Assembly (NCBI GenBank): GCA_963664305.2
Contig: CAXXLV010000002.1
Span: forward strand, 1,504,001 to 1,568,000
Length of the DNA stretch: 64,000 nt
Source: an uncultured Aliarcobacter sp.
GTDB lineage: Bacteria; Campylobacterota; Campylobacteria; Campylobacterales; Arcobacteraceae
Reading direction: 5' to 3'
A program made the position numbers and the translations under genes. This document shows, in pieces, positions 38,687 through 58,247 of the stretch (position 1 is the stretch's first letter; each line of letters starts with the position of its first letter). The notes under the pieces are model-generated. The model was not told where the DNA came from. It made no database searches and saw only the letters and a list, made by a program, of their open reading frames with translations.

Positions 38687-38762
38687 TTTTTTCATCCTTT
38701 TAAATTTAGAAATTGAAGAAAATATCTTTTAAAAAGAGTAATTTTTTTCTTCCATTGATGAA

Positions 38763-38816
38763 ATCTTACACCACATTTATAGCATAAATTTAGCGTAAGT
38801 ATAGCATGAGTATAGC
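38763..38816 (-). promoter_or_regulatory. aldB promoter: four GCTAWA repeats (11-bp period) plus -10 TAAGAT
   Basis: + strand TATAGC 38778, TTTAGC 38789, TATAGC 38800, TATAGC 38811; -10 at 38763-38768. Confidence 0.75.
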
Positions 38817-38907
38817 AATGTAGTTTTTTGTTACAAATTACGATAAATTCGGCGTTTTTATCAATTTTTTTTCTTTGAAAATTTCAAAATATGTGTTACA
38901 ATTTTTT

Positions 38908-40815
38908 ATGAAAACTTTTACATATACAATAAATAATAAACCTTTAGAAAAGATAATTGATTTTTCAATGTTTGAAAACGAAAAAAATATTTTAATTCAA
39001 ATTTTTTGTGGTGAAACAAAAGAAAAATTAGAAAACATATTAGATGTTATTACAAAAAGATTAGCTCATGCTGTTTGTATAGGTTCTTCTACAGATGGAG
39101 AAATAAGTAATGATACTATTACAACAAATCAAACTATCATATCTATTTCTACTTTTGAAACAACAACAATTAAATATGCATATGTTGAAGAAGAAGACTC
39201 TTTTTCAAATGGTGTGGAACTTGCTACAAAACTTTGTACAGATACAACAAAAGCTATTATTGCTTTTAGTGATGGAGCTACTACAAATGGAGAAGAATTT
39301 TTAAATGGTATCAATTTTGTAAATAACAAAGTAATTGTAAGTGGTGGTATGGCTGCTGATAATGCAAACTTTACTCAGACATTTATCTCTTGTCAAAATA
39401 AAATATTAACAAAAGGTGCTGTTGGTATTTCTTTAAATTCTGAAGATTTAAAAGTATGTAATGCTTTTAATTTTAATTGGTCTCCAATAGGAATAGAGCA
39501 TGTTATTGAAGAAGTTGTTGGAAATAGAGTTTACAAAATCTCTGGCCTTACACCTTTAGATTTTTATGAAAAATATTTAGGAGAATATGTTGCTCGGTCA
39601 CTTCCAGCAACAGGAATAGAATTTCCTTTAATTGTACAAAAAAATAGAATTCCAATTGCAAGAGCTGTTATAGCAAAACATGAAGATGGAAGTTTGAGTT
39701 TTGCAGGGAATCTTCATAAAGGAGATGTTGTAAGACTTGGTTTTGGAAATGTTGAATTAATTCTAAGTAATCCTCTAAAATCTTTATTAGATAAATGTGC
39801 AATGAATGAAACTCAAAGTATTTTTATCTATACATGTATGGCAAGACGTAGATATATGCCAAGTTTAATTGATATAGAAATAAAACCTTTTTCAAAAATA
39901 GCACCAACTGTTGGTTTTTTTACTTATGGAGAGTTTTTTCATAATAAAGAGAATAATGAACTATTAAATCAAACACTAACGGTATTAGCTTTAACAGAAA
40001 AAACAAATTCAAATTTGGATTTGAAAGTTGAAATAAATAGTAATCAAGACAAACTTAGTGAGCATGCAAGAAGTCTGCAAGCTTTAACAAATCTAATTCA
40101 ACAATCTTCACGTGATTATAATGAACAATCAGAAAAATTAGAAAAAGGAAATAAATATGCACAAAATCTAATAGAATCTCAAAAACAGTTTTTAAAACAC
40201 GCAGTTCATGAAACAAATACTCCCTTATCAGTTATCATGGGAAATATTGAGATGTTTGAAATGGAAAATGGAAAAAACAAATACCTTTCAAATATTGAAG
40301 TTGCAATGAAAAATATCTTTAGTATTTATGATGATTTGAGTTATTTAATCAAAAAAGACCAAGTAAATTCTGCAATTCATAAAATAAATATAGTTGATTT
40401 TGTTAGAAGTAGAATTGATTTTTTTACATCTTCTGCTTTGAAATTTAAATCAAATTTTAAATTTCAATCATTAAAAGATGAAATAATTATGAATTTCAAT
40501 GAAATAAAACTTCAAAGAATAGTTGATAATAATCTTACAAATGCAATTAAATACACTCTTCCAAATGAAACAATATTTGTAAGGCTTTCTGAATTTAACT
40601 CTGAATGTCACTTTACAATTGAGAGTCGTTCAAAACAGATTTTAGACCCACAACAAATTTTTGAAGAATATTATAGAGAAGAGCTTTCAGAAGAAGGTTT
40701 TGGACTTGGACTAAATTTAGTAAAAAGAATTTGCAGTGAAGAAAATGTAGGAATTAGATTAGAATCTGGTGAAAACTTTGCTTCATTTACATATATTTTT
40801 AAAGGAGTACTATGA
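38908..40815 (+). CDS. Cytoplasmic FIST-domain sensor histidine kinase
   Basis: FIST_N (GSSTDGEI, SGGMAAD), FIST_C (CMARR, GFFTYGEF, NQT), H-box VHETNTPL, NAIKY, GFGLGL; no TM segment seen. Confidence 0.88.
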   Translation: MKTFTYTINNKPLEKIIDFSMFENEKNILIQIFCGETKEKLENILDVITKRLAHAVCIGSSTDGEISNDTITTNQTIISISTFETTTIKYAYVEEEDSFSNGVELATKLCTDTTKAIIAFSDGATTNGEEFLNGINFVNNKVIVSGGMAADNANFTQTFISCQNKILTKGAVGISLNSEDLKVCNAFNFNWSPIGIEHVIEEVVGNRVYKISGLTPLDFYEKYLGEYVARSLPATGIEFPLIVQKNRIPIARAVIAKHEDGSLSFAGNLHKGDVVRLGFGNVELILSNPLKSLLDKCAMNETQSIFIYTCMARRRYMPSLIDIEIKPFSKIAPTVGFFTYGEFFHNKENNELLNQTLTVLALTEKTNSNLDLKVEINSNQDKLSEHARSLQALTNLIQQSSRDYNEQSEKLEKGNKYAQNLIESQKQFLKHAVHETNTPLSVIMGNIEMFEMENGKNKYLSNIEVAMKNIFSIYDDLSYLIKKDQVNSAIHKINIVDFVRSRIDFFTSSALKFKSNFKFQSLKDEIIMNFNEIKLQRIVDNNLTNAIKYTLPNETIFVRLSEFNSECHFTIESRSKQILDPQQIFEEYYREELSEEGFGLGLNLVKRICSEENVGIRLESGENFASFTYIFKGVL

Positions 40816-41471
40816 AAATTTTATTAGTAGAAGATGATGAAATGTTAAATGAAATGATTACTGAATATATAAATTCAACTGGTCATGTAATAATAAGTAC
40901 AAAAACAGGTCAAGAATCTTTAGAAATCTTAGACTCCCAAAAATTTGATTTATTGATTTTAGATATTTCACTTCCAGATATAGATGGTTTTACGATTTTA
41001 GAAAAATTGCATGAACAAAAAAGAATGGTTCCAACTATTTATATTTCTGCATTAATTGATATAGAAGATATATCTAGAGCTTTTGATTTAGGTTGTTTTG
41101 ATTATCTAAAAAAACCTTTTCATCTAAAAGAACTGACTCTAAGAATAAATAAAATTCTAAAAACAAGATTGGTTCCTCAAAGACATAAAAGACTTTCAAA
41201 ACATTATAGTTTTGATGCAGAAACTATGACTTTATATTTTAATAATGAACCACATATTCTTCCAAGACGACAACTTCAAATTATTGAACTTTTAGCACAA
41301 AATAGAAGTTTAGTTGTAAACTATGATATGTTTAGAACTTATGTTTGGAATGATGATTATATAGATAATGCAACTATTAGAGCAGAAGTAAATAGAGTAA
41401 AAACTGTATTAAGAGAAGATTTTATTAAAAATATAAGAGGAAGCGGTTATATGGTTGAAAGACCTGATTAA
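40812..41471 (+). CDS. OmpR/PhoB-family response regulator
   Basis: LLVEDD, LDISLPDIDG, KPF; winged-helix C-terminus IRGSGY. Confidence 0.92.
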   Translation: MKILLVEDDEMLNEMITEYINSTGHVIISTKTGQESLEILDSQKFDLLILDISLPDIDGFTILEKLHEQKRMVPTIYISALIDIEDISRAFDLGCFDYLKKPFHLKELTLRINKILKTRLVPQRHKRLSKHYSFDAETMTLYFNNEPHILPRRQLQIIELLAQNRSLVVNYDMFRTYVWNDDYIDNATIRAEVNRVKTVLREDFIKNIRGSGYMVERPD

Positions 41472-41478
41472 GGTCTTT
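41458..41478. terminator. Bidirectional terminator between the regulator and pqqE
   Basis: aaagacct-gatta-aggtcttt. Confidence 0.6.
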
Positions 41479-41487
41479 CTTTTTATA

Positions 41488-42588
41488 TTAAATAAAAGTC
41501 AAAGAATTTAATCTATTTCTATATATGATTTTATCATCTGCATAAATCATACTATCTTCAATTTTTTTATTTATTATTCCATGGTCTGGTGATTTTATAC
41601 AAACAGGGTCAGTTGCATTCATATCTTTTGTTAATGCAAATGCTTGACATCTGCATCCTCCAAAATCTTTCTCTTTTTCATCACAAGTACGACATGGTTC
41701 TTTCATCCATTTATCACCTCTAAAATAGTTAAAGGCTTCAGATTCATACCAAATATGTTCTACTGAACTCTCTTTTACATTTGGAAAAGTTAAAGGTAAA
41801 GTATTTGCTGTATTACAAGGAAGTGCTAAACCATCTGGATTAATAGTTAAAAATGTTGTTCCCCATCCATTCATACAAGCTTTTGGTCTTGTTGCAAAAT
41901 AATCAGGAACAACAAAAAATACTTTCATATCTGTTCTTTGTGTTCTATAATAATTTGTAACTTTTCTTGCTTCACTAATTTGTTCTTGAGATGGTAAAAG
42001 TGCATTTATATTTTTTAAAGCCCACCCATAATATTGGATATTTGCGATTTCTAAATAATTTGCACCTAATTTTTCAGCAAACTCTATGATATCTCCAACT
42101 TGATGAATATTTTGTCGAGTAATACAAGTATTAATAATAAGTTGAAGACCTGCATCTTTTACCTCTTTTGCAAATGCAATTTTTTCATCATAAGAGTTTT
42201 TATTGTTTGTTATTAAAGTCATAGTATTTTTATCATGTGATTGAATACCAAGTTGAACTGTTTTAAGTCCTGCTTCTTTTAATTTTGGAACAATTCCTTT
42301 TGGAGCACCAACTCCTGAAGTTATAAGATTTGTATAAAATTTTAAATCATTTGCTTTTTTTACAATCTCTAAAACATCTTTATTTAATAAAGGCTCTCCT
42401 CCACTAATTCCAAGTTGAACAGCACCTAATTCTCTTGCTTGTTCCATCACTCTAAACCAATCTTCTTTGCTCATAGCGTCTTTTGTTTTTGCAAAATCAA
42501 GTTGGTTATAACAATATGCACACTCTAAAGGACATTTATGAGTTAATTCTAAAAGAATCCATAATGGTGGTTTTATTTCATTGTTCAT
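41488..42588 (-). CDS. pqqE: PqqA peptide cyclase, radical SAM/SPASM
   Basis: PPLWILLELTHKCPLECAYC, QYYGWA, KACMNGWG, DFGGCRCQA. Confidence 0.97.
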   Translation of the reverse strand: MNNEIKPPLWILLELTHKCPLECAYCYNQLDFAKTKDAMSKEDWFRVMEQARELGAVQLGISGGEPLLNKDVLEIVKKANDLKFYTNLITSGVGAPKGIVPKLKEAGLKTVQLGIQSHDKNTMTLITNNKNSYDEKIAFAKEVKDAGLQLIINTCITRQNIHQVGDIIEFAEKLGANYLEIANIQYYGWALKNINALLPSQEQISEARKVTNYYRTQRTDMKVFFVVPDYFATRPKACMNGWGTTFLTINPDGLALPCNTANTLPLTFPNVKESSVEHIWYESEAFNYFRGDKWMKEPCRTCDEKEKDFGGCRCQAFALTKDMNATDPVCIKSPDHGIINKKIEDSMIYADDKIIYRNRLNSLTFI

Positions 42589-42838
42589 ATTTAATCCAGT
42601 TTCTATTTTTTGCTTCTGCTAAAAAAGCATTTATATCTTGTGTTAAATCTTCCATTTCAAATTTTTCACATAAAATTTTATTTATATCTTTTACGCTGTT
42701 TTTTCCGTCACAAAGATTTAGAATTTCTCCTGCACTTTGATTTAATTGAACCATACCTTCTGGGTATAAAAGTACATAACAGTTTTGTTTTTCTTCCCAT
42801 TGAAATTGAAAATTCGGATTTACACTTATATTTTTCAT
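42578..42838 (-). CDS. pqqD: PqqA-binding chaperone (RRE)
   Basis: QWEEKQNCYVLLYPEGMVQLNQSAGEILNLCDG. Confidence 0.96.
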   Translation of the reverse strand: MKNISVNPNFQFQWEEKQNCYVLLYPEGMVQLNQSAGEILNLCDGKNSVKDINKILCEKFEMEDLTQDINAFLAEAKNRNWIKYEQ

Positions 42839-42839
42839 T

Positions 42840-43550
42840 TTATCTTTCCACGTTAAAGTAAGGAGGTCTTTTTAATTCATAAGCTAAATATAAAGCATCA
42901 CAAATTGTCCATAAAATATCTAGTTTAAATTGTAAAATTGTAAAAGCTTTTTCTTGTAATTCTCTTGTATTAAACTCTTCAAGAGTAATTGCAAGTCCAT
43001 GTTGAACATCTCGTCTAGCTTCACTTAATCTTTTTTGGAAATATCTTAAACCCTTTTGTTCAATCCAAGGATAATTATCTGGCCAAGTATTTAATCTTTG
43101 TTGATGAATTTGTGGAGCAAACATCTCAGTTAAAGATGACATTGCAGCCTCTTTCCAAGGTCTTTGACGTGCAAAATTAACATAAGCATCAACTGCAAAT
43201 TTAACGCTAGGTAATAAAAATTTATGATTTATTAAATCCTCTTTTTTAAGTCCAACTGCTTCACCTAGTTCCAACCAAGCCTCTATTCCACCACCAACAC
43301 TATCATGGTCATTAATTCTATCTATCCATTTTCTTCTATCAACTAAACTATCACAGTTTGACATAATTGCAGCATCTTTAATAGGAATCATACATTGATA
43401 ATAAAATCTATTTGCAACCCAACCTTGAATCTCCTCTTTTGTACACTTACCTTCATACATTCTTATATGAAAAGGATGATGAATATGGTACATTTTTCCC
43501 ATATCTCTTAGTTTTGTTTCAAATTCTTCTTTACTAAAAACTTCTTGCAT
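42840..43550 (-). CDS. pqqC: Pyrroloquinoline-quinone synthase
   Basis: [26 protein letters not shown]. Confidence 0.97.
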
Positions 43551-43560
43551 TTTCTCTCCT

Positions 43561-44475
43561 TTAAATTTCTATACTCATACCATCATAAGATACTTCAATA
43601 CCATGGGATATAAGTTCTTTATACTCAGGGCTCTCTTCATCTAAGATAGGATTTGTATTATTTATATGAATTAATATCTTTCTTGGTTTTGTTAAGGTAT
43701 CTAATAAATCAATCAATCCACCCTTATCTCTTAGGGGTAAATGTCCCATATCAGTTCCAAGTTTTGAAGAAAATCCATTTTTTATCATCTCATCATTTGT
43801 CCAAACTGTTCCATCTACAAGTAAAATATCAGCTTGACTCATCTCTTCAATTATATGTTTTTCTAAAACACCAAGTCCTGGAAGATAAAACAATCTTTTC
43901 CCTGTTTTTTTATTTAAAACAACAACTCCAATATTATCACCAACTCTTGGTCTATCTCTATATTTTGAATATGGAGGTGCATTTGAAATTAGTGGAACGG
44001 CATAAAACTCACAATTTGGCATAACTGGTATAAAAAATGGTTGTTTATTAAAAGCTATTTCATTATAAACAACTCCTCCACCATCCCAGTGTTGAAGCAT
44101 TTTAAATAAAGGAAAAGAAGTATTTAACTCTTCATGAACTTCTTTTGTACAATAAACTTGATGAGGGCATCCTTCCCTTAACATCAAAAGTCCAGTTGTA
44201 TGGTCGATTTGAGCATCAATAAAAATAATAGCTTTTATTTTTGTTTCACGTCTTTGTTGTGGATGTAAAAATGGTGAATTATGAATTTGTTCTAAAATAT
44301 CAGGACTTGTATTAAATAAAACCCAATTCTCACCGTCTTCACTAATTGTAATAGAACTTTGTGTTCTTCTTTTTATAGATTTTTTTCCTTCTCTATAACC
44401 TTTACAATTATCGCAATTACAATTAAATTGAGGAAGTCCACCACCAGCAGATGAACCTAAAACTTCTATTCTCAT
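43561..44475 (-). CDS. pqqB: PQQ biosynthesis hydroxylase, MBL fold
   Basis: [40 protein letters not shown]. Confidence 0.97.
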
Positions 44476-44530
44476 AACCTACCTTTATTTTCATAACTAA
44501 ATCTACAAAATTATAGATTTGGATATAAAA

Positions 44531-44558
44531 ATACAAGCTAGAAATTTCTAGCTTGTAT
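44531..44558 (-). terminator. Perfect 28-bp palindrome between pqqA and pqqB (partial terminator / mRNA stabiliser)
   Basis: atacaagctagaaa|tttctagcttgtat, followed by TTTT on minus strand. Confidence 0.75.
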
Positions 44559-44603
44559 CCAAGAACAAAATTTAATTTACAAACAGGATTTTTAATTTAT
44601 TTA

Positions 44604-44678
44604 TTATTCATGACAAATATACATTGTCACTTCAAAACCAAATCTATTGTCAACAAACATAGGTTTTTCCCATTTCAT
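44604..44678 (-). CDS. pqqA: PQQ precursor peptide, 24 aa MKWEKPMFVDNRFGFEVTMYICHE (absent from ORF track)
   Basis: Manual translation; W-x-K-P and RFGFEVTMY with E-x3-Y; SD AAGGAGG upstream. Confidence 0.96.
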   Translation of the reverse strand: MKWEKPMFVDNRFGFEVTMYICHE

Positions 44679-44704
44679 TTTTATTCCCTCCTTTATAAGA
44701 TTTT

Positions 44705-46495
44705 TTATTTGTGTAATTTAAACACGTGAACAGAGCCACCTTGGTTGATGTTTTTAACTGCTTTTGCAACTTCACCACCCCATAAAGGAACAGCTCCACC
44801 CCAACCAGAAACAACAGCTACATATTGCTCACCATTTTGTTCCCAAGTAATTGGAGAACCAACGATTCCTGAACCTACGTTAAATGAGTATAAAACTTTT
44901 CCATTTTGGTCATCTAAAGCTAATAATTTACCTTCAGGAGTTCCAGTAAATACTAAACCACCAGCTGTACTTAACACTCCTCCCCATAATGGAGCTTTAT
45001 TTTTGTAAACCCATTTAATTTGTCCAGTTACAGGATCAACCGCTTTTAAAGCACCAATGTGGTCTTCAAAAATTGGTTTAATTGTAAACCCTGCTCCTAA
45101 ATATGCTGCACCTTTTTTGTACGATACTGGTTGATTCCAAATATCCATTCCCCACTCATTTGTTGGAACATAGAATAATCCAGTGTTTTGAGAATATGAA
45201 ATTGGCATCCAGTTTTTAGCACCTAAGAATGAAGGAACTGTAAATACTGATGTTCCTTTTCCACCATCAACTGCTGCACCTGGTCTATTATCTTCATTTA
45301 CAATTGGTCTTCCATTTTCATCAATTCCTTTTGCCCAAGTAATATTCTCAGCAAAAGCAACTGATCTAATATATTTACCAGTTGTTCTATCTAAAACGTA
45401 GAAGAATCCATTTTTGTCAGCTGTTGCTCCAGCTTGAACTTTTTTACCATCTTTATCTTTGTAATCAAATGGAATAAACTCTGACATACCATCAAAATCC
45501 CATCCATCATGTGGAGTTGTTTGGAAATGCCATACAATTTTTCCAGTATCTGGATTAACTGCAACTCTTGAAGCAGAATATAAGTTATCCCCTTTTCTTA
45601 AGTGTGAATTCCATGGTGCTGGATTTCCAGTTGGAACGAAAATTAAATCTGTATCAGGGTCATATGTAACACCATTCCAAGGAGCAGCTCCACCTGATTG
45701 CCACATGTCACCTTCCCAAGTAGCGTTTAATGTACCACTAATTCCATTTTCTTTACCATTTAAGTATCCCATATGACCTTCAACCATTGGTCTCATCCAT
45801 ATAAGTTCACCAGTTTTTGGATCTCTAGCTTCTACTTTACCAACAACACCAAACTCACCACCTGAAATACCTGTGATAACTTTGTCTTTTACAATTAGTG
45901 GAGCAGCAGTTATAGAATAACCATCTTTATATTCAGAAACTTTTTTCTTCCAAACAACTTTTCCAGTTTTTCTGTCAAGTGCAACTAATTTTGCATCTAA
46001 AGTTCCAAAAATAATTAGATTATCATAAATAGCAGCACCTCTATTTATAACGTCACAACATGGTAAAATTGCATCTGGTAAGTTTGCATCATATTGCCAA
46101 ATTTCTTCACCCGTTGCTATATCAATAGCAAAAACTCTTGAATAAGAAGCTGTAACATACATTACACCATCTTTAACGATTGGTTGAGATTCTTGACCTC
46201 TTTGTTTTTCACCACCAAAACTAAAGTTCCAAACAGGAACTAAATCTTTAACACTATCTTTATTAATTTGTGTTAAAGATGAAAATCTTTGTCCTTGTTG
46301 TCCTAACCCATAAGTTAAAACATCATTTGTTGTTTTTGCATCATTTGCAATTTCTTTGTAAGTAACTGCATTATATGATGGTTCTGTAACATTAGTTGTG
46401 CTATTATTAGTAGCGTTGTTTGAAGCAACACAACCACTAATTAGTGCAGATAGTGTAACGGCAACTGCACTAGTTAGCAATTTATTTTTAATCAT
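44705..46495 (-). CDS. pedH: PQQ-dependent alcohol dehydrogenase, lanthanide-type (PedH/ExaF-like), predicted lipoprotein
   Basis: GQESQP, vicinal PCCD, GGEFG, GNPAPWN, WDFDG (45488-45502), C-terminal [11 protein letters not shown]; lipobox ISG-C. Confidence 0.88.
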
Positions 46496-46544
46496 ATTCT
46501 CTCCTTATATAATTTTAATAACAGACCAAATTTGTCTTATTGAA

Positions 46545-46576
46545 AGTATACATAACAAATATAGCCTAAGTTTAGC
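46545..46576 (-). promoter_or_regulatory. pedH promoter: GCTAAA-N5-GCTATA plus -10 TATACT
   Basis: + strand TATAGC 46560, TTTAGC 46571; -10 at 46545-46550. Confidence 0.72.
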
Positions 46577-47354
46577 TATGGTTTATTTTTTTAGATTTAA
46601 ATCCAACAAACGCCATAAATAGGCTAATTACCAATGAAATTAGTAAGATAAAAAACACCTCAAAATCATATTTTCCATAAAGTGAAAAACGAATAGCCTC
46701 TACTATATAAGTAAAAGGATTAGATGATGAGATATTAAACAATAAAATAGACGAATCTTTTATCTTCCAAAGAGGATATAAAGCACTACTTAAAAAGAAC
46801 ATTGGGAAAATTACAAAGTTCATAACTGTTGCAAAATTCTCTAACTGTTTTATTACAGAAGAGATAAATAAAGCAAAAGCATTTAAGATTATTGATGAAA
46901 TTATGATTATTGGAACTGTTAGAAAAATATCTAAAACCGATAGTTCAACCCCATACCATTTAGCAATAAATAAAAAAGTTAAAGCTTGAAGAGTTGATAC
47001 GATTGCAGTTGCAAACATCTTACAAAAAAGTAGATAATTTCTATTTATATATGATGTTAAAAGTATTTTCATACTTCCCATCTCTCTATCAAAAATCATA
47101 GTTAAACTACTTTGCATTCCATTAAAAAGTAAAACCATTCCAACAAGCCCTGGAACTATATATGTTTCATAAGTAATATATGTTTCATAAGGTGGAATAA
47201 TTGCCAATCCAAGTGCTGTTTTAAATCCAACTGAAAAAATAAATAACCATAAAAGTGGTCTAACAAGTGCAGAAAAAAATCTACTTTTTTGTTTTAAAAA
47301 TCGTATTAACTCTTTATATACAATTCCATTCATGCAATAGATATATTTTTTCAT
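46572..47354 (-). CDS. pedC: ABC-2 type permease of PQQ-alcohol dehydrogenase clusters (PedC-like)
   Basis: RFFSALVRPLLWLFIF, PPYETYITYE, FNGMQSSL..DREMGSM, QLENFA.VMNFVIFP. Confidence 0.88.
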   Translation of the reverse strand: MKKYIYCMNGIVYKELIRFLKQKSRFFSALVRPLLWLFIFSVGFKTALGLAIIPPYETYITYETYIVPGLVGMVLLFNGMQSSLTMIFDREMGSMKILLTSYINRNYLLFCKMFATAIVSTLQALTFLFIAKWYGVELSVLDIFLTVPIIIISSIILNAFALFISSVIKQLENFATVMNFVIFPMFFLSSALYPLWKIKDSSILLFNISSSNPFTYIVEAIRFSLYGKYDFEVFFILLISLVISLFMAFVGFKSKKINHS

Positions 47355-47358
47355 TTTT

Positions 47359-48078
47359 TCATCCTACAATTTGCTTGAATGTATCAACCAAATTCTCTTT
47401 TTCATATTTTTTAACAATATTTTTTACAATTCCAGTTTCTATTATTTCACCATTTTTTATTATTGAAATATTGTCATTTTCTTTTACCTCATCAAAAAGA
47501 TGTGTAATCCATAAAACAGAAATTTGTTTCTCTTCTACTAATTTTCTTACATAATCCAAAATATCAAATCTACTTTTTAAATCCAAACCAACAGTTGCTT
47601 CATCTAATAATAAAAGTTTTGGTTTATTTATCAATGCTCTTAAAATCTCTACTCGTCTTCTGTGTCCACCATTTAGTTTTCGCACTTGTGTATCCATAAC
47701 ATCTAAAAGTTCAAGTTTTTCTATTTCATCTTTTATTGAAAGAAGTGTCTCTTTAAAATTTAAACCTTTTAAAGAGCCATAGTAATAAAGATTTTGTTTT
47801 ACAGTTAAATCTAAATCCAAAGTTGGTTCTTGAAAAACAATCCCAATATCTTTTAAAGCATTTGAATAATCTTTTATTGAGTAGTTATTTATGAAGATTT
47901 CTCCAATTTGAAGAGATTGAAGTCTTGTAATCAAAGAAAAAATTGTAGATTTTCCTGCACCATTAAGTCCTAATAAAACAGAAAAAGCTCCCTCTTTTAT
48001 GGAAAAAGAGACATTATTTAATACTCTCTTTTTTCCATAATAAAAATCTATATCATTTAGTTCTAAAATATTTTTCAT
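47359..48078 (-). CDS. pedB: ABC ATP-binding subunit (PedB-like)
   Basis: GLNGAGKS, VFQEPTLDLDL, LNGGHRRRVEI, LLDEATVGLD. Confidence 0.88.
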   Translation of the reverse strand: MKNILELNDIDFYYGKKRVLNNVSFSIKEGAFSVLLGLNGAGKSTIFSLITRLQSLQIGEIFINNYSIKDYSNALKDIGIVFQEPTLDLDLTVKQNLYYYGSLKGLNFKETLLSIKDEIEKLELLDVMDTQVRKLNGGHRRRVEILRALINKPKLLLLDEATVGLDLKSRFDILDYVRKLVEEKQISVLWITHLFDEVKENDNISIIKNGEIIETGIVKNIVKKYEKENLVDTFKQIVG

Positions 48079-48079
48079 T

Positions 48080-49039
48080 TTATTTATTTGGAATAACAGC
48101 TAATCCCCAAGGATATCTTCCTACAGGAATTGTTTTTTCAACTTTTAATGACTCAACATCAATTATTGAAACATCACCACTTACACCATTTGTTGTATAA
48201 AGTTTTTTCTCTCCATCTACAAAATGTAACTGCCAAACTCTTTTTCCTACAAGTAAATATTTAATTACTTTATATGTTTTTGCATCAATTACAGCAACAT
48301 GATTTGCAGGTCCTAAAGCAACAAAAGCATATTTTCCATCACTTGTAAGTTTAATTCCAACTGGTTGAATTAAATCTTTAAAAATTCCAGGAATTTTAAA
48401 TCCAATTTTTGCAACAGATGTTTTAGTTTTTGCATCAACTACCATAACTGTTCCACCAATTTCACTTGAAGCCCAAACCATACTTCCATCATGTGAAAAC
48501 TCAATATGTCTTGGTCTTTGATCAACCAATGTGTTATGAATAATCTTTTTTGTTTTTGTATCAATCCAGTGTAAAAAATTTGAAGTTTCTGTTGTATTAA
48601 TAGCAACACTTCCATCAGGACTTACAGCCATACCTTCTGGTTCAACACCTACATCGATTTGAGCTAATACAGATTTGTTTTGTGTATCAACAACAGTTAC
48701 AATTGCATCATCTTCATTTGAAATATATAACTCTTTTCCATCAGGAGTTAAAGCAAATTGTTCAGGGTCTTCACCTGAAGGTAAATCATATAAAATCTCA
48801 TTTGTTTTTGTATCCATTACTTGAACTGTATCATCATCACTTGCACAAATATAAAGTTTGCTATAGTCATTACTTAATAAAATTCCTCTTGGTCTTTGAC
48901 CTACTTTTACAGTTTTTACAACTTTATTTGTATCTGAATCTATTATGCTTAAAGTATTATCTTTTTCATTTGAAACATAAACTGTATCAGCCATAAGCAT
49001 ACTTGTTAAAATTGATATTGATAAAAAAGTCTTTTTCAT
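48080..49039 (-). CDS. Periplasmic YVTN beta-propeller, PQQ-catabolism associated (PedA2-like)
   Basis: YVSNEKDN, GQRPRG, SGEDPE, GVEPEG, GRYPWG; signal peptide; SD favours ATG at 49039. Confidence 0.88.
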   Translation of the reverse strand: MKKTFLSISILTSMLMADTVYVSNEKDNTLSIIDSDTNKVVKTVKVGQRPRGILLSNDYSKLYICASDDDTVQVMDTKTNEILYDLPSGEDPEQFALTPDGKELYISNEDDAIVTVVDTQNKSVLAQIDVGVEPEGMAVSPDGSVAINTTETSNFLHWIDTKTKKIIHNTLVDQRPRHIEFSHDGSMVWASSEIGGTVMVVDAKTKTSVAKIGFKIPGIFKDLIQPVGIKLTSDGKYAFVALGPANHVAVIDAKTYKVIKYLLVGKRVWQLHFVDGEKKLYTTNGVSGDVSIIDVESLKVEKTIPVGRYPWGLAVIPNK

Positions 49040-49068
49040 ATTTTTATTCTCCATTTATTTTATGATGA

Positions 49069-49144
49069 ATTTTATATCATCTTTATAGCCTAAGTTTAGC
49101 GATTGTTTTATTGCTAAACTAAAGCTATAAATATCCATTATAAT
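49069..49144. promoter_or_regulatory. Divergent promoters, each with a GCTAAA-N5-GCTATA box 9 nt from a -10 hexamer
   Basis: Minus: TATAGC 49084, TTTAGC 49095, -10 TAAAAT 49069-49074. Plus: GCTAAA 49113, GCTATA 49124, TATAAT 49139-49144. Confidence 0.75.
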
Positions 49145-49167
49145 CAATGAACTAAAAAGGAGAAAAA

Positions 49168-50319
49168 ATGAAAATAATTTTATTTTTACTACTGCTATTA
49201 AATTTTATTTATGCAGATATCTTAAATACAAAAATTTTATATTTAGAACAAAAAATTGAAAAACCACCTGTTTTATCAAATATCATAGAAGAACCTGATG
49301 ATTTAGGTTTAAAAGGTGCCCAAATTGCTGTAATTGATAGTAATAAAAGTGCTAAATTTTTAAATCAAAACTTTGAACTTGAAACAAAAATATCTTATGA
49401 TGAAAATGAGTTAATAACTGCTTTTGAAGATTTTATAAAAGCAAATAACAGTTATGTGATTTTAAATGTTGAAACAACTCTTTTTGAAAAAATCGTTAAA
49501 AATCCACTTTCAAAAAATGCTTTATTAATAAACGCAAGCAATGAAAGCACACAAATTAGAAAAAATTATTGTGTTAAAAATCTAATCCACACAAGTGCAA
49601 GTAACGCAATGCTTTATGATGGATTAGTTCAATTTTTAGTAAAAAGAAATTTTAAAAATATTCTTTTAATAAGTGGAAAAAATCCAAAAGATATAGAAAT
49701 AGCAGATGATATAAAAAGAGCTGTTAAAAAATTTGGAGCAAAAATCGTTGCTGAAAAAACTTGGGAGAACAATAGTGATATCAGAAGAAAAGCTTCTGAT
49801 GAAATTCCTGTATTTACACAAGCAAAAGATTATGATGTAGTTTTAGTAGCAGATTATTATGGAGATTTTGGAGAGTTAATCTATTTTAACTCTTGGCTTC
49901 CAAGACCAGTTGCAGGAACTCAAGGATTAACTCCTGTTTTATGGCATAAAGTTATCGAAGCTTGGGGAGCTGCTCAAATGCAAAGTAGATTTGAAAAGTT
50001 CTCTTCAAGATGGATGCAATCGCGTGATTATTCAAATTGGCTTGCAGTTAGAACAATCATCACATCTATAGCAAAAACAAATACAAATGATTTAAAAACC
50101 AATCTTGATTTTATTTACTCTGATGAGTTTGATGTTGGTGCATATATGGGAAGAAAACTCTCTTTTAGAGATTATAATGGACAAGTTAGAATTCCTATTT
50201 CACTTGTTCAACCAAGAGCTTTGATTTCAACTTCACCACAAGTTGGTTTCTTACATCCAACAACAGATTTAGATACACTTGGAATTGCACCTTTTGAAAT
50301 GGAATGTAAAAATGAATAA
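49168..50319 (+). CDS. ABC substrate-binding protein of PQQ-ADH clusters (PedA1-like)
   Basis: DYDVVLVAD..GDFG, PRPVAGTQGL, WGAAQMQSRF, SPQVGFLHP..DLDTLG. Confidence 0.85.
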   Translation: MKIILFLLLLLNFIYADILNTKILYLEQKIEKPPVLSNIIEEPDDLGLKGAQIAVIDSNKSAKFLNQNFELETKISYDENELITAFEDFIKANNSYVILNVETTLFEKIVKNPLSKNALLINASNESTQIRKNYCVKNLIHTSASNAMLYDGLVQFLVKRNFKNILLISGKNPKDIEIADDIKRAVKKFGAKIVAEKTWENNSDIRRKASDEIPVFTQAKDYDVVLVADYYGDFGELIYFNSWLPRPVAGTQGLTPVLWHKVIEAWGAAQMQSRFEKFSSRWMQSRDYSNWLAVRTIITSIAKTNTNDLKTNLDFIYSDEFDVGAYMGRKLSFRDYNGQVRIPISLVQPRALISTSPQVGFLHPTTDLDTLGIAPFEMECKNE

Positions 50320-50773
50320 AATCTTTTTATTCATTTTTCTTTTCTCTTCTTTTTTACACGCAAATTATGAAATCATAGAAAATGAAAACTTTTTTGTTGT
50401 AAAAACAGCAAACACAAATTTTCAAGAAAATCTTTTAAAACTAAAAGATGAGATAAACTTTCAAGGTTTTGTGATAGTTTATGAATTAAATCTAGCAAAA
50501 TCAACAAATGAAGTAGCAACTTTACTTGAAAAAAAATCTTATCTAAAAAATGGTACAAATCTAGGAATTTGTAAAGCAAGTTTTACGTATGAAATGGTAG
50601 AAGAAAATTTTAATAATATAAATTATTGCCCTCTTGGATTATCAATATATGAAGATTTTGATGGTTCTTTTTATATTTCATTTAAAAAATATAAACCCTT
50701 TAAAAATGAAGAAAAAATAGCAAATAAGATAAATGAAAAACTGAAAGATTTGATTTTTAAAAGTTTAGAGTAA
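50312..50773 (+). CDS. Exported DUF302-like protein
   Basis: Signal peptide from MNKIFLF; conserved Cys pair (GICKAS ... INYCPL). Confidence 0.65.
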   Translation: MNKIFLFIFLFSSFLHANYEIIENENFFVVKTANTNFQENLLKLKDEINFQGFVIVYELNLAKSTNEVATLLEKKSYLKNGTNLGICKASFTYEMVEENFNNINYCPLGLSIYEDFDGSFYISFKKYKPFKNEEKIANKINEKLKDLIFKSLE

Positions 50774-50777
50774 AAAT

Positions 50778-51653: not shown

Positions 51654-51761
51654 TTTTAGCCTTTTGGATTTATAGAAGTAATTATATGGATTTTGCTGAT
51701 TAATAATAAAAAATATTACAATTTGTTATTTTTTATTTCTTCAATTTTTTTAGGAAAAACA

Positions 51762-51781
51762 GCCATCTTAAAAAAGATGGC
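51762..51781 (-). terminator. Intrinsic terminator of the porin transcript
   Basis: gccatctt-aaaa-aagatggc, then TGTTTTT on minus strand. Confidence 0.75.
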
Positions 51782-51788
51782 ATATCTT

Positions 51789-51893
51789 TTAGTGAGTTAA
51801 AATATAATGAATTTGATAGAACATATTGATATAAATACCAATAAGTCCTATCATTCCTATCATACCCGCGCCATGTTCTTTTAGGAGTTTCAT
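51789..51893 (-). CDS. Putative 34-aa hydrophobic small protein MKLLKEHGAGMIGMIGLIGIYINMFYQIHYILTH
   Basis: Manual translation; fills the gap between the porin stop and the terminator; no clear SD. Confidence 0.5.
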   Translation of the reverse strand: MKLLKEHGAGMIGMIGLIGIYINMFYQIHYILTH

Positions 51894-51899
51894 TTTATT

Positions 51900-53099
51900 T
51901 TAAAATTCGATATTAACTGCACCAACAACAGTATGCATATCTTCTAAACTGTTTTTATCAAAATCACCAAATGCATATCTTAAACCAAGAGTTGCACTTT
52001 TATTTAAAGCATAAGATAAACCTAAATCATATTCGTTGATTTTTAAATCTTCATTTAAACTTGAAAAAGTTGTATCTTTGATTTTATGTTGAGCTATATT
52101 TGACTCTAATGTTAAAGCTTGTGTTAAATCATATTCAAAATTTAAAGCAAAGATAGTTGTATCACCATATTTTCCAACTCTATTAAATGAATCCGTCCCT
52201 AAATCAGCATTTGTAAAATATGTTACAGGTAGATTTTCCCCTGATACATAACCATCTTTTGTATGAACTGCTGCTGCACCAATTTTAAAATCATTGATTT
52301 GTTTAGCAACTTTTAAATATGCTCCAAACATTTTTTCATCAACTTGTCCTGCTGTCGAATTACTTCTATCACCAGTTCTTTTTTCAACTTGTGTTTGTAA
52401 TTCTAATCCAGCAACTTCACCCATTGCAAAGGCATTGAACATATGACTTGTTGCATCATTATAAATTGCAGAATTTGTAGCTGTTTCAGTATTGTTTTGT
52501 AAGTAAACATATCTTCCACCAACAAGTAATTTATCAAGAATAACTTGTCCACCTAAACCATATGCATCAAAATCTCCAGTTCCAGTTCCTGATGAATTAG
52601 CACCTAAGAATGTATTTTGGTCATTATTTTTACCTTCAACTGCTTTAAAATCAAATGCATATAATAAAGTATTTTCAACTGGTGTATAACCTAAAAGAGC
52701 TAAATCAATTTTATCTCCATTAGAACCATAAAAAGGTGTTCCATATGTATCATTTATTCTTCCAGCAATTAGTAATTTATCTTGATTAAATGGAACTGTT
52801 ACATAAGCTTCTTCCCACTCAAAAGTATCGTTTGAGTTATCACCCCAAGCATCATTTTGTAATTTTATAGCTGTGTGAACTTTTATACCTTCAAGTGTAG
52901 TAAAGTCTAAATTTAGATTAACTTCTGAATCAATAATTTGTTTATCTTTTTTAACTGTTGCTGTATCACCTTTTACAGAAATTCCCCTAACTTCTGCATC
53001 ACCAGAGATTTTTAAATCTGATGCTATTTCTATAGTACCTGCCATTAATGAACTTACTACAACTGATGTTGCAAAACTGATTAATCCTAACTTTTTCAA
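51900..53099 (-). CDS. Outer membrane porin-like beta-barrel
   Basis: Signal peptide, alternating beta-strand pattern, C-terminal Phe (..AVNIEF); TTG start with SD AAGGA. Confidence 0.78.
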   Translation of the reverse strand: MKKLGLISFATSVVVSSLMAGTIEIASDLKISGDAEVRGISVKGDTATVKKDKQIIDSEVNLNLDFTTLEGIKVHTAIKLQNDAWGDNSNDTFEWEEAYVTVPFNQDKLLIAGRINDTYGTPFYGSNGDKIDLALLGYTPVENTLLYAFDFKAVEGKNNDQNTFLGANSSGTGTGDFDAYGLGGQVILDKLLVGGRYVYLQNNTETATNSAIYNDATSHMFNAFAMGEVAGLELQTQVEKRTGDRSNSTAGQVDEKMFGAYLKVAKQINDFKIGAAAVHTKDGYVSGENLPVTYFTNADLGTDSFNRVGKYGDTTIFALNFEYDLTQALTLESNIAQHKIKDTTFSSLNEDLKINEYDLGLSYALNKSATLGLRYAFGDFDKNSLEDMHTVVGAVNIEF

Positions 53100-53159
53100 A
53101 CTATTTCCTTTATAATTTTTTTTACATAAATTTATATGAAAATAAATTTTGTATTCGTT

Positions 53160-53235
53160 ATTATATCAAGGAGTTATAGCCTCAGAATAGCCCATAAATA
53201 GCCTATCTATAGCGTTTATATAGCTTAATTATAGC
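53160..53235 (-). promoter_or_regulatory. Porin promoter: six ATAGC (GCTAT) repeats at exact 11-bp period plus -10 TATAAT
   Basis: Hexamers at 53175, 53186, 53197, 53208, 53219, 53230; -10 at 53160-53165. Confidence 0.8.
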
Positions 53236-53278
53236 ATTAATAAAAAATTATTTTTTTGTAATTTTAAGTACATTTTTT

Positions 53279-53683
53279 TTATTTGTATTTACCGTATTCC
53301 TTAAAAGTTTTATCTTCAAAAATAACAAAAACTGTTTTAGTTTCTTTATCATTTTCATAAGCTGGAAGAGATAATCCTATAGAATTTTTTACAGGATTTT
53401 TTAAAAAATCATTTATTGCTAGACTTGGAACATTTCCTTCAAATACAAAATCTTTATATATTGAAGTATTACAAGATTGTATCTCTTTTGGTATTCCAAC
53501 ATTTCTTTTTAATGCTTTCATATCAATCATTGATACAACATCCACACTTTCATTTACATCACTCTTGATTTTGTCTAACCAATCTTGGGGACAAGTGCTA
53601 CTAACTGGCTTAAATATTTGAATCTTTTCATCAAATGCAAATAGACTCAAAGCCAAAAACAAAATAAATACTAACTTTTTCAT
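53279..53683 (-). CDS. Exported DUF411-like protein with altered metal ligands
   Basis: SCNT..FEGNVP..GLSLP resembles DUF411 SCHT..EGHVP..GLAVP. Confidence 0.6.
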   Translation of the reverse strand: MKKLVFILFLALSLFAFDEKIQIFKPVSSTCPQDWLDKIKSDVNESVDVVSMIDMKALKRNVGIPKEIQSCNTSIYKDFVFEGNVPSLAINDFLKNPVKNSIGLSLPAYENDKETKTVFVIFEDKTFKEYGKYK

Positions 53684-54381
53684 ATTTCTCCTTCTAATAT
53701 TTTGGGATAAGTTTTAAATAATCTATTTTTTATTTCATCAATTTTTTCCATATCAAACTCTTGATTATTTTCATTTTTATATTCATAGATTATTTTGGCT
53801 GGATTTTTACCAAAAAACAAAATCCTATTTGAAAGATATATCGCTTCACTTAAATCATGAGTAACTAAAATCACACTACTTTTAAACTCTTTGCAAAGAT
53901 TTAAAAAAAATCTTTTTAGATTTAGTGCAGTTGGAAAATCCAAAGATAAAAATGGTTCATCAAGAAGTACGATTTTTGGTTCATTGATAAAAGTTCTAAT
54001 CAAAGCAATTCGTCTTGCCATTCCACCAGAGATTTCATTTGGGTATTTTTCTAAAATATCTTTTTTTAATTCAACAAAAGATAAAAACTTTTCAATCTTT
54101 TTTATATCTTTATTTTTAGAAAATAAAAGCAAATTCTCTTTTATTGTAAGCCAAGGTAATAATAGATTTTCTTGAAACATATATCCGATATTTGAAGATT
54201 TTAAGTTTACATTTCCTATAAACTCTTTATCCAAAGAAGCAACTATTTTTAATAAAGTTGTTTTACCACAACCAGATGGTCCAATAATTGATAAAAATTC
54301 TGAATCTTTTATATTGATTTTTATATCTTCTAAAATTTTGTTTTTTTCATAATATTTTGTTTTGATTTCTATATTTATCAT
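53680..54381 (-). CDS. NitT/TauT-family ABC ATP-binding protein
   Basis: GPSGCGKT, FQE..LLPW, ISGGMARR, LDEPF, VTHD. Confidence 0.9.
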   Translation of the reverse strand: MINIEIKTKYYEKNKILEDIKINIKDSEFLSIIGPSGCGKTTLLKIVASLDKEFIGNVNLKSSNIGYMFQENLLLPWLTIKENLLLFSKNKDIKKIEKFLSFVELKKDILEKYPNEISGGMARRIALIRTFINEPKIVLLDEPFLSLDFPTALNLKRFFLNLCKEFKSSVILVTHDLSEAIYLSNRILFFGKNPAKIIYEYKNENNQEFDMEKIDEIKNRLFKTYPKILEGEI

Positions 54382-54382
54382 T

Positions 54383-55117
54383 TTAAATCCATCTTCTATA
54401 TTTTTTTTCCATAGGAGTTAAAAACAATCTTTCAAACAAAAATATAATAAAAATAAAACAAAAAGTATAAGCAAATATTGATGTTATATCAAAGTATTGG
54501 AAAAACATAGAGATTTGAAAACCAACTCCATCACTTCTTCCTAAAAGTTCAACAACCAAAACCAATTTCCAAATCAAAGATATAGCAATTCTACTACTTG
54601 AAATCAAAGATGGATACAAATAAGGAATATAGATTTTAAATAGCGTCTCTTTAAAATTTAGGTTATATACTTTTACTAATTGTAAATATTTTTTATCCAA
54701 AGAACTAACTGCCTCTTTTATATTTACAATGATAATTGGAACTTTGTTTATAACAACAGCTAAAATCAAAGAAAAATCAGTTAATCCAAACCAAATATAA
54801 CAAATAACTATTGTTACAAGAGCTGGAATATTTAAAGCAATTAACAAAAAGATAGAAAAAAAGTTTTCAATTTTTGTTGAAATTCCCATCAAAAATCCCA
54901 AAAATATTCCAATAATCATAGTAATAACAAAAGCTAAAACAACTCGATATAAAGTAATACTAATATTTTCAATCAAATCTTTGTTTTTAAAATGTTCAAC
55001 AATAGAATAAAAAATATCAATCAAAGATGGAAAAAGTTCTGAATTTACTAAAAGTGAAATTGCTTGCCAAACAATACAAAAAAGAATTATTGAAAATATT
55101 TTTGTTTCATTAAACAT
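54383..55117 (-). CDS. NitT/TauT-family ABC permease
   Basis: LNIPALV..YIWFGL, WKLVLVVELLGRSDGVG. Confidence 0.88.
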   Translation of the reverse strand: MFNETKIFSIILFCIVWQAISLLVNSELFPSLIDIFYSIVEHFKNKDLIENISITLYRVVLAFVITMIIGIFLGFLMGISTKIENFFSIFLLIALNIPALVTIVICYIWFGLTDFSLILAVVINKVPIIIVNIKEAVSSLDKKYLQLVKVYNLNFKETLFKIYIPYLYPSLISSSRIAISLIWKLVLVVELLGRSDGVGFQISMFFQYFDITSIFAYTFCFIFIIFLFERLFLTPMEKKYRRWI

Positions 55118-56074
55118 TTATTGAACCTTATAAAAAATATCTTTTTCTAAAACTCTGCTCTCTTGTGATAAATCATCTTTTCCTTCATTTAATAAAAGTG
55201 AAAATATTTTTTCTATGTCTTTAATATTTTCATTTGTAAAATCTTTTATAATTGATTTTTTATATCCCTCTTTTAATGCTTCAAAATCATTTTCATTATC
55301 AACTTTCATTATATCTTTTAATCTATCCCACTCTTTTTCGCTACTATTTAAAATATCTTTTGCTTCAAAACTAGCCTTTAAAAAAGAGTTTATTAAATCA
55401 TGATTTTCAATTGAAAAATCTTTATAAAATGTCCAACCAACAAAAGGAATATCACTATTTACTCCAAATTCACTAAAAACATTTTCCATTAGAACTAAAG
55501 GTTTCATACCAAATTTTTCTAATTTTGCATTAAAATGCCAATAATTTATACTTGCATTCAAAGACTCATCTTCCATTTTTTTATATAAAATTGGTGCTGT
55601 TGCAAAAACTGGTTTTACTATATTTTTTAAATCTAAATTATATTTTTTCTTTGCATAAGCTCTTAAAATAATCCAAGTTTTATCATCAACTCCACCTGCA
55701 ATTCCCAATTCTTTATCTTTTAAATTTTCAAAAGTTTTTATTTCACTTTTAGGATTTATATAAAGAGTTCCTGTAGCTTTTGAATAAGGATAAAAAACAA
55801 ATTGTTTATTTTTATCTCTTTGTGTATTTACCCAAATCCAATCATTTACAATCATATCTACACTTTTTGATTGAAGTGCGATTAATTGGGCATTTTTTGA
55901 AGCTAATTGAGTAAGTTGTAAGTCAAATCCATACTTTTTATCAAGTTCATAATGTTTAATTACATCTAATTCCCAGTTTACTGTTCCATAATTTAAAACA
56001 CCTATTTTCAAAACATTTTGTGCATACAAATTTGATATTATTAAAGCTACTATAAATAGGACTTTTTTACTCAT
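55118..56074 (-). CDS. Periplasmic binding protein, PqqT-like (probable PQQ binding)
   Basis: IGVLNYGTVNWEL, FYPYS, GIAGG.DDKTW.IL, NYWHFNAKLE resemble Methylorubrum PqqT as recalled; SD favours ATG at 56074. Confidence 0.72.
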   Translation of the reverse strand: MSKKVLFIVALIISNLYAQNVLKIGVLNYGTVNWELDVIKHYELDKKYGFDLQLTQLASKNAQLIALQSKSVDMIVNDWIWVNTQRDKNKQFVFYPYSKATGTLYINPKSEIKTFENLKDKELGIAGGVDDKTWIILRAYAKKKYNLDLKNIVKPVFATAPILYKKMEDESLNASINYWHFNAKLEKFGMKPLVLMENVFSEFGVNSDIPFVGWTFYKDFSIENHDLINSFLKASFEAKDILNSSEKEWDRLKDIMKVDNENDFEALKEGYKKSIIKDFTNENIKDIEKIFSLLLNEGKDDLSQESRVLEKDIFYKVQ

Positions 56075-56103
56075 AATTACTCCCAATTTTTATTAATTTT
56101 GCA

Positions 56104-56188
56104 ATTGTATATAAATTTTATAGCGTGAATTTAGCAATGAAAAGAATTTTTCCATCGCTATAATTAGGCTATAAAGAGGGTTTATAAT
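56104..56188. promoter_or_regulatory. Divergent promoters, each with a paired GCTAWA box 9 nt from a -10 hexamer
   Basis: Minus: TATAGC 56119, TTTAGC 56130, -10 TACAAT 56104-56109. Plus: GCTATA 56157 and 56168, TATAAT 56183-56188. Confidence 0.75.
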
Positions 56189-56221
56189 TCCACTAATCAA
56201 AAAAAATTGAAAAGGAAAATT

Positions 56222-57486: not shown

Positions 57487-57495
57487 GAGATTTAT

Positions 57496-58245: not shown

Positions 58246-58247
58246 AA

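Follow-up and report, generated by a model that had tools for sequence, protein, structure and literature searches.

A tandem-repeat promoter box beside a FIST-domain kinase-regulator pair marks a probable aldehyde-centred regulon in the Arcobacteraceae

Introduction

How might the Arcobacteraceae control the oxidation of alcohols in the periplasm? The question is raised by a 64,000-nucleotide (nt) stretch of the genome of an uncultured Aliarcobacter sp. (contig CAXXLV010000002.1, positions 1,504,001 to 1,568,000; hereafter the window), in which a cluster of ped-type alcohol-oxidation genes carries short tandem repeats with the core GCTAWA ahead of its promoters. A preliminary description of this DNA had placed such repeats at seven promoters and had proposed them as an OmpR/PhoB-style activator box for the response regulator encoded at 40812-41471, at the head of an alcohol/lanthanide regulon. 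Here, we ask whether the pattern exceeds chance, which protein may read it, and which signal would suit the genes that follow it. The box is, in our view, likely to be a PhoB-like activator site of the neighbouring OmpR-type regulator, serving a regulon that is centred on aldehydes.

Results

A promoter box with fixed geometry

The pattern under study was GCTAWA-N5-GCTATA-N9-TANNNT, with the same pattern read backwards as negative control; the window's own genome (G000) comprises 2,780,884 bases, and counts for the family refer to 184 Arcobacteraceae genomes. Allowing at most one mismatch, the full pattern occurred eight times in the window against 0.03 expected, a number reached by none of 100 shuffled sequences, and all eight matches fell within positions 38763-56188. 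One of them (53204-53235) was an inner register of the porin array and had no separate promoter. The bare dimer GCTAWA-N5-GCTAWA, at up to one mismatch, was found 13 times against 1.83 expected. Across the whole G000 genome there were seven exact matches, six of them inside the cluster, and a tolerance of one mismatch raised this to 10 matches at nine promoters, with 0 for the backwards control; the motif was thus not equally common at unrelated promoters. Each of the 10 matches was followed by a co-oriented open reading frame (ORF) 15–105 nt past the -10 hexamer. The seven sites of the preliminary description were recovered with the coordinates, -10 hexamers and copy numbers that it had given (four at aldB, six at the porin gene, two at each of the others), every repeat being oriented with its own gene and the proximal copy lying 9 nt ahead of the -10 at all seven promoters (Table 1). 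They do not make up the full regulon: two further promoters in G000, and more in relatives, lie beyond the cluster. The observation itself is confirmed as real and strongly non-random.

For the geometry, 87 promoter-proximal dimers were gathered from all loci examined, with the -10 ignored in picking. TANNNT stood exactly 9 nt past the dimer in 78 of the 87, and any other spacer from 0 to 19 nt accounted for at most 14. A co-oriented ORF of at least 100 amino acids (aa) began within 200 nt at 81 of the 87 full sites; the exceptions included contig ends and one site ahead of the small pqqA gene. The number of units per promoter was two, four or six, arranged as tandem direct repeats in 11-nt phase, and 86 distinct sites gave the consensus GCTAwAnTnAgGCTATAAAtnT...TAnAAT.

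Table 1 Box promoters, genes and signals of the cluster (window positions), with further sites in the same genome (contig positions).
Feature	Position	Strand	Details
aldB (ExaC-like NAD aldehyde dehydrogenase) and DUF779 gene	36738..38695	-	NF050026, 834 bits vs cut-off 900
aldB promoter	38763..38816	-	four GCTAWA units (38778-38816), 11-nt phase, 9-nt spacer, -10 TAAGAT
Soluble sensor histidine kinase	38875..40815	+	Pfam FIST, FIST_C, HisKA, HATPase_c
Candidate extended -10 of kinase-regulator operon	38894..38902	+	TGTTACAAT; 5 nt before ATG 38908
OmpR/PhoB-family response regulator, predicted binder of the box	40812..41471	+	start overlaps kinase stop by 4 nt
Terminator-like hairpin closing kinase-regulator operon	41457..41479	+	
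pedH-like PQQ alcohol dehydrogenase, pqqA (44604-44678), pqqBCDE	41488..46495	-	all co-oriented behind pedH promoter
pedH promoter	46545..46576	-	two units, 9-nt spacer, -10 TATACT with TG before it
pedA2 (beta-propeller), pedB (ATPase), pedC (ABC-2 permease)	46572..49054	-	TIGR03866, TIGR03864, TIGR03861
pedA2BC promoter	49069..49100	-	two units, 9-nt spacer, -10 TAAAAT
pedA1 promoter	49113..49144	+	two units, 9-nt spacer, -10 TATAAT; divergent from pedA2BC promoter
pedA1 (periplasmic binding protein) and conserved 164-aa ORF	49168..50773	+	TIGR03863; 164-aa ORF without known family
Porin-like outer-membrane protein	51900..53099	-	no family match
Porin promoter	53160..53235	-	six GCTA cores, 11-nt phase (53175-53235), 9-nt spacer, -10 TATAAT
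ABC importer (binding protein, permease, ATPase) and DUF411 protein	53279..56086	-	
ABC importer operon promoter	56104..56135	-	two units, -10 TACAAT
pedF promoter	56157..56188	+	two units, -10 TATAAT
pedF cytochrome c550, SBP_bac_3 protein, SoxYZ-like carrier, relay metallohydrolase 1	56207..59150	+	
Eighth site	G000:C1:615212-615243		about 100 nt ahead of a 400-aa Pyr_redox_2 (NDH-2-like) ORF
Ninth site (one mismatch)	G000:C2:1138604-1138635		GATATA-N5-GCTATA-N9-TATTAT, 26 nt before start of a FIST-domain ORF
Second FIST-domain ORF of G000, 657 aa	G000:C2:1136606-1138579 (L072 606-2579)	-	

The box accompanies a kinase-regulator pair

Orthologs of the alcohol dehydrogenase (ADH) of the cluster were found in 57 of the 184 family genomes and in 10 of 22 genera. 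In 26 of 30 ADH loci, including the window, the core pattern lay 61–84 nt upstream of the ADH start, mostly at about 82 nt; three of the other four loci had a distal CCTATA variant and the fourth was truncated at the end of its contig. In seven clusters representing six genera the box stood at the same positions, ahead of aldB, pedH, pedA2, pedA1, the porin gene, the ABC importer and pedF.

Counts across genomes were based on a strict pattern, because a relaxed one had too much background in families without the kinase encoded at 38875-40815. The strict pattern was present in 99 of 184 family genomes, and its backwards control in 0 of 184. Orthologs of the kinase, at a threshold of E ≤ 1e-140, were present in 99 family genomes, and a tally made by hand from the two tables gave a strict match in 89 of these 99 vs 10 of the 85 kinase-less genomes. 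Five of the ten genomes with a kinase and no match were inspected (G038, G087, G088, G153, G158), and all of them keep an array of four units whose hexamers deviate from the pattern. The kinase-regulator operon and aldB are divergent in 16 of 16 inspected family genomes, with the four-unit array between them, which in G086 is split into two dimers. Three genomes without the pyrroloquinoline quinone (PQQ) dehydrogenase (G002, G011, G148) nevertheless keep kinase, regulator, box and aldB, and G011 also keeps the box ahead of an NDH-2-like gene. Judged from these comparisons, the core of the system is the kinase-regulator pair, the box and the aldehyde dehydrogenase.

The pair extends beyond the family. 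Among 401 genomes sampled at class level, orthologs of the kinase were detected in 10 of 23 genomes of the window's family, in 15 of 19 of a second family (f11), in 1 of 118 of a third (f2) and in 0 of 240 from eleven other families. The f11 regulator is 56–63% identical to that of the window. Three f11 genomes have the pair divergent from the gene of a molybdenum aldehyde oxidoreductase (Mo-AOR) of 907–943 aa (domains Fer2, Fer2_2, Ald_Xan_dh_C and MoCoBD). In between stand two units and, past a 9-nt spacer, a -10 similar to TATAAT; the box of G249 reads GCTATA-N5-GCTAGA-N9-TATAAT. In a fourth, a box with one mismatch is located after the regulator gene, ahead of a tungsten-type aldehyde:ferredoxin oxidoreductase (W-AOR). 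Pair and box were hence adjacent in four of four inspected f11 genomes, next to targets that are not homologous to those of the window. The box-bearing genes of G249 comprise the Mo-AOR, a W-AOR, an OprD-family porin and a Hyf/Ech-like membrane complex, and a further box stands ahead of a chemoreceptor gene behind an insertion sequence. The Mo-AOR box of G249 (L084 5938-6241) is separated from the start codon by a long leader of about 270 nt, and an Rfam search of three f11 loci gave no match at gathering score, so that no molybdenum cofactor riboswitch was found in the Mo-AOR leader.

Properties of the kinase and the regulator

Kinase and regulator are the only regulators encoded in the cluster. 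Translation of the kinase probably starts at the ATG at 38908, and the TTG at 38875 appears too early; M12 of the kinase (38875 numbering) was invariant in the ortholog alignment, and C321 is an invariant residue as well. Reading the kinase sequence by eye revealed no membrane-spanning hydrophobic run. A structural model of the FIST region, which spans residues 12 to 375 or so, had a mean predicted local distance difference test (pLDDT) score of 81 and a predicted template-modelling (pTM) score of 0.84. In a fold search with this model the best match was FBXO22, a FIST protein, at template-modelling scores of 0.45–0.53, followed by chorismatase and cyanuric-acid-hydrolase folds; at the level of the model, the search confirms the FIST fold and points to no ligand. 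A sequence search of the PDB with the kinase matched only the kinase core.

The regulator combines a Response_reg domain (92.3 bits) with a Trans_reg_C domain (38 bits vs a cut-off of 26.2) and can be aligned to 1kgs along its entire length. The receiver residues D8, D9, D51, S79 and K101 are invariant in 12 of 12 orthologs drawn from all three families, as are T188, I189, R190, E192, N194, R195 and K197 near the C-terminus. The stretch T188-K197 is predicted to be the part of the regulator that reads the DNA.

The operon of the pair appears to have a promoter of its own, for which a candidate extended -10 was identified (Table 1). Here TGCTACAAT and six T before the kinase ATG are kept in five relatives (G001, G042, G054, G155, G002). 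No Shine-Dalgarno sequence was seen before the ATG at 38908, nor a box at the fixed distance from the candidate -10. This arrangement suggests that the kinase-regulator mRNA is leaderless or near-leaderless. Autoregulation through the distal aldB repeats was considered and found unsupported, as the conserved extended -10 of this operon lies next to the start codon, about 80 nt away from the array; direct control of the pair by the box is for that reason not suggested.

Several genomes contain a second copy of the FIST kinase, 49–53% identical (e.g. G054:C1:2772166-2774070 and G169:C1:3166350-3168251), and each of these copies includes a single in-frame TAA, which the alignment crosses at the same span. 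This may reflect a paralogue, gene splitting or recoding.

Genes behind the box

The cluster holds the ped-type structural gene set, with the PQQ ADH, PedF, PedA1A2BC, the SoxYZ-like carrier, the metallohydrolase and pqqABCDE. The models TIGR03075, TIGR04494, TIGR03866, TIGR03861 and TIGR04558 were matched above cut-off, and TIGR03863, TIGR03864 and TIGR04557 just below it. The ABC system had initially been called pqqT-like, a name that was not borne out: its best NCBIfam matches were SaoA/SaoP, below cut-off.

Beyond the cluster, NDH-2-like genes stand behind the box in six genomes (G000, G010, G011, G023, G029, G141), and pta-ackA does so in G148. The genes eutBC and an ethanolamine permease follow the box in G001 (L050 5004-8739) and G033 (L068), in the latter case judged by matching ORF layout. 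G108 has eutB behind the box, confirmed in locus L063 and read from matching ORF layout in L064; the G000 genome itself has eutB (L071), with no box upstream of it. An identical box occurs three times in G108, the two loci examined having it before a 466-aa ORF, and the three may be real duplicates or an assembly artefact. Exact boxes precede orthologous FIST-domain chemoreceptor genes in G044 and, by matching layout, in G049. The 657-aa FIST-domain ORF behind the ninth site of G000 is apparently a chemoreceptor as well, to judge from a 22% alignment to that of G044. Boxes are also found ahead of a Fer4_5 protein and ApbE in G024 and G025. In G004 (L061 1604-6374), divergent boxes serve an operon of two U32 peptidases, a radical-SAM-SPASM protein and a class IV aminotransferase on one side and a PqqC/TenA-like gene on the other; these divergent units may represent a cofactor pathway within the regulon. 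A divergent box pair was also seen at G025:C79:8766-8827.

One member of the regulon is constant, an enzyme that oxidises aldehydes; it belongs to unrelated kinds depending on the lineage and comes with a means to re-oxidise the reduced carrier. In the proposed scheme, alcohols would be converted to aldehydes by PedH, supported by PQQ synthesis, cytochrome c550, the PedA1A2BC transporter and the porin, and in some relatives EutBC would yield acetaldehyde from ethanolamine. The ExaC-like dehydrogenase would then oxidise the aldehyde to the acid and the NDH-2-like enzyme would re-oxidise the reduced carrier, with a FIST-domain chemoreceptor under the same control. Since the constant member oxidises aldehydes and comes with carrier re-oxidation, the signal of the kinase is probably an aldehyde or something tightly coupled to aldehyde oxidation. 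Acetaldehyde would be the simplest candidate, as the breakdown of ethanol and that of ethanolamine both yield it.

Side observations around the promoters

The pedH promoter overlaps the stop codon of the pedC-like gene. Its leader (46500-46540, minus strand) contains a conserved inverted repeat, AAGACAAA...GTTTGTT, that starts about 8 nt past the -10 and is present in most of 25 distinct ADH leaders, one lineage having a compensatory ACAAC/GUUG variant. This repeat may form a 5'-terminal mRNA hairpin or a second operator; RNAalifold returned no consensus structure for the pedH leaders. Directly beyond the distal aldB repeat lies a palindrome, TTTGTAACAAA (38826-38838), which is kept in G001, G042, G002 and G011 and nearly so in G054. 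Its half-sites are similar to the ones in the pedH leader repeat, and a second regulator may bind there. An Rfam search of window positions 36000-60000 gave nothing at gathering score.

Three further observations concern the gene order. A RhuM-family gene (50778-51653) sits between the pedA1 unit and the porin gene and is missing there in seven other clusters inspected, and in G001 the porin gene is split by a DDE transposase (L032 9818-11419). An HDOD-domain gene (35843-36655) follows aldB-DUF779 on the same strand and has the same place in G011; it is a possible additional signalling component of the module.

Discussion

Probable activation by the neighbouring regulator

Comparative evidence from domains, co-occurrence and adjacency lends good support to the proposal that the box is an OmpR/PhoB-style activator site for the regulator encoded at 40812-41471. 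According to the mechanism that we propose, the phosphorylated regulator would bind the GCTAWA repeats and switch transcription on, in the manner of PhoB at pho boxes. With a start site assumed some 7 nt past the -10, the two proximal units would span about -38 to -22 and take the place of a -35 element, and a head-to-tail dimer bound there would contact or recruit RNA polymerase. The four-unit array of aldB and the six-unit array of the porin gene would bind further dimers.

Several points weigh against this reading. We infer activation, as opposed to repression, from geometry alone, and an aldehyde signal from the content of the regulon alone. Among the loci examined, L051-L070 were selected for matching the pattern and the cluster loci by protein matches. 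The genomes are related and hence not independent samples, which makes the tallies look statistically stronger than they are. Four sequencing runs, flagged as probably DNA and mostly from relatives, showed no transcription starts. Among the ten kinase-less family genomes with a strict match, nine have one match each and G167 has four, the kinase not being found with this query in a genome that is 91% complete. At least one match to the relaxed pattern occurred in 182 of 401 genomes, with four in each of two kinase-less ones. In G390, the single f2 genome with the kinase, the pair neighbours an RND efflux operon and no box could be recognised. A -35 consensus is generally missing from promoters of this phylum, so that its lack here is not diagnostic, and a sigma-70 consensus scan was uninformative in such AT-rich DNA (91 matches vs 110.8 in shuffles).

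Two alternatives concern the protein at the box and its action, and we regard both as improbable. In the first, the neighbouring regulator would bind as a repressor, occluding RNA polymerase at the -35 region until a signal releases it. The box does overlap the region where polymerase binds, but simple occlusion needs neither strict orientation nor an exact 9-nt distance, which 78 of 87 dimers keep; orientation and spacing together speak for activation rather than occlusion. In PhoB-type systems, moreover, this architecture serves to activate transcription. In the second, the box would be read by another transcription factor encoded elsewhere and the pair would control something else, which would accommodate both G390, where the pair has no box nearby, and the ten kinase-less genomes with a strict match. 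Such a factor would, however, have to explain the adjacency of pair and box in 16 of 16 family genomes and 4 of 4 f11 genomes, in f11 next to non-homologous targets; no other regulator gene is conserved in the clusters, and direct repeats in 11-bp phase suit the winged helix of the OmpR family.

A probable aldehyde rather than lanthanide signal

With activation by the neighbouring regulator as the preferred reading, the nature of the signal has to be weighed. The lanthanide half of the original alcohol/lanthanide label is not supported. A response to lanthanide availability, with the kinase reporting the metal state of PedH, has some appeal. The ADH is closest to PDB entries 6zcw/6zcv (865 bits), which we take to be PedH, and less close to 1flg (679 bits), and it carries the motif W-D-F-D-G. 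D-x-D is the signature of lanthanide enzymes. Genes like pedA1A2BC also belong to the regulon, and in Pseudomonas this system is described as a lanthanide transporter (PMC12997753). Its presence makes a metal co-signal possible, a further point against a pure aldehyde signal. Control by lanthanides is nevertheless very unlikely: the kinase lacks any part in the membrane or the periplasm, genomes that have no PQQ ADH still retain kinase, box and aldB, the targets in the second family are Mo and W enzymes, and the cluster has no LuxR-type pair like PedS2/PedR2. The signal is, from the genes concerned, better described as aldehyde-centred than as lanthanide-related.

The weakest alternative, in which an alternative sigma factor would use the repeats as a -35-type element, agrees with the fixed distance from the -10 and is scarcely credible given that the -10 boxes are ordinary TAnAAT hexamers, that a sigma factor has no need of two, four or six repeats at 11-nt phase, and that the presence of the box tracks the kinase-regulator pair.

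A bolder extension of the aldehyde signal, which we put forward as speculation and think rather unlikely, is that the FIST domain of the kinase senses the aldehyde directly, kinase, regulator and box then forming an ancient aldehyde alarm of the Campylobacterota that has repeatedly switched between NAD-, Mo-, W- and PQQ-dependent oxidising enzymes as its target. If true, an aldehyde would be the first metabolite ligand of the FIST family, and the NosP-like FIST protein of Pseudomonas ped/exa clusters would report alcohol-derived aldehyde and not only nitric oxide.

Comparison with known systems

A literature search, which did not cover subscription journals, found no description of the regulon, the box or the kinase. 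A possible resemblance to the repeat consensus of Campylobacter jejuni CprR was dropped as unverified; the passages available from PMC7887314 give no consensus.

The closest mechanistic precedent is a familiar one. Escherichia coli PhoB is a winged-helix regulator for which two direct repeats of 11-bp period, with the repeat sequence CTGTCAT, stand in for a -35 some 10 bp ahead of the -10; it activates by contact with RNA polymerase, and its kinase PhoR is membrane-bound. The system described here shares the winged-helix regulator and the 11-bp direct repeats in place of a -35 at a fixed distance from the -10. It differs in the repeat (GCTAWA, not CTGTCAT), in arrays of up to four and six units, in the regulator, which is not PhoB itself (87.9 bits against the PhoB model TIGR02154 vs a cut-off of 296.2), and in a soluble FIST-domain kinase that is linked to alcohol and aldehyde oxidation rather than to phosphate.

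In gene content, the nearest relatives are the ped/exa clusters of Pseudomonas, which have homologous pedH, pedF, pedA1A2BC, pedI/exaC, pqq and porin genes, SoxYZ-like carrier and metallohydrolase, and which encode a FIST/NosP-type sensor and a soluble kinase in the cluster, a pairing to which the FIST domains and kinase found here may correspond. As described in a review, their control involves the NosP-like PP_2663 with PedS1 (ErcS'/NahK), YiaY with PP_2683, AgmR (ErbR) and PedS2-PedR2, the regulators being of the LuxR type and forming a layered cascade with PedS2-PedR2 as lanthanide switch (PMC12997753). The terms 'OmpR' and 'FIST' each have 0 occurrences in that review. In contrast, the sole regulator of the present cluster has a Trans_reg_C domain, is not of the LuxR type and appears to serve every promoter directly. 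FIST is here fused to the kinase, which scores 56.9 bits against the NosP model vs a cut-off of 450. There is also no lanthanide-switch pair and no second kinase-regulator pair in the cluster, and G000 has one ADH at 1e-100.

EatR is, by analogy, the nearest functional counterpart. It is described as the acetaldehyde-sensing sigma-54 enhancer-binding protein of the aldehyde dehydrogenase-eat-eutBC operon of P. aeruginosa (PMC5821096). Both systems have a regulator gene divergent from an aldehyde dehydrogenase gene and place ethanolamine lyase and aldehyde dehydrogenase under joint control. In both, the signal would be the shared intermediate acetaldehyde and not the substrate, which for EatR is reported as demonstrated and here is proposed. 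Compared with EatR as portrayed there, a sigma-54 activator, the present system is a two-component system with a different DNA site and a far larger regulon.

These comparisons indicate what the system may offer. A FIST-domain kinase and its regulator become testable: the DNA site is defined, one genome offers nine target promoters, and a candidate signal can be named. As to what FIST domains sense, the constant presence of an enzyme that oxidises aldehydes, in four unrelated forms, gives an unusually direct clue. The promoters could also serve as compact inducible parts for AT-rich hosts. For the Arcobacteraceae, the work gives a first outline of a possible control of alcohol oxidation in the periplasm, much simpler than the layered LuxR-type cascade of Pseudomonas, and the regulon is a cleanly defined new case within a familiar type of system, that of OmpR/PhoB regulators at tandem repeats.

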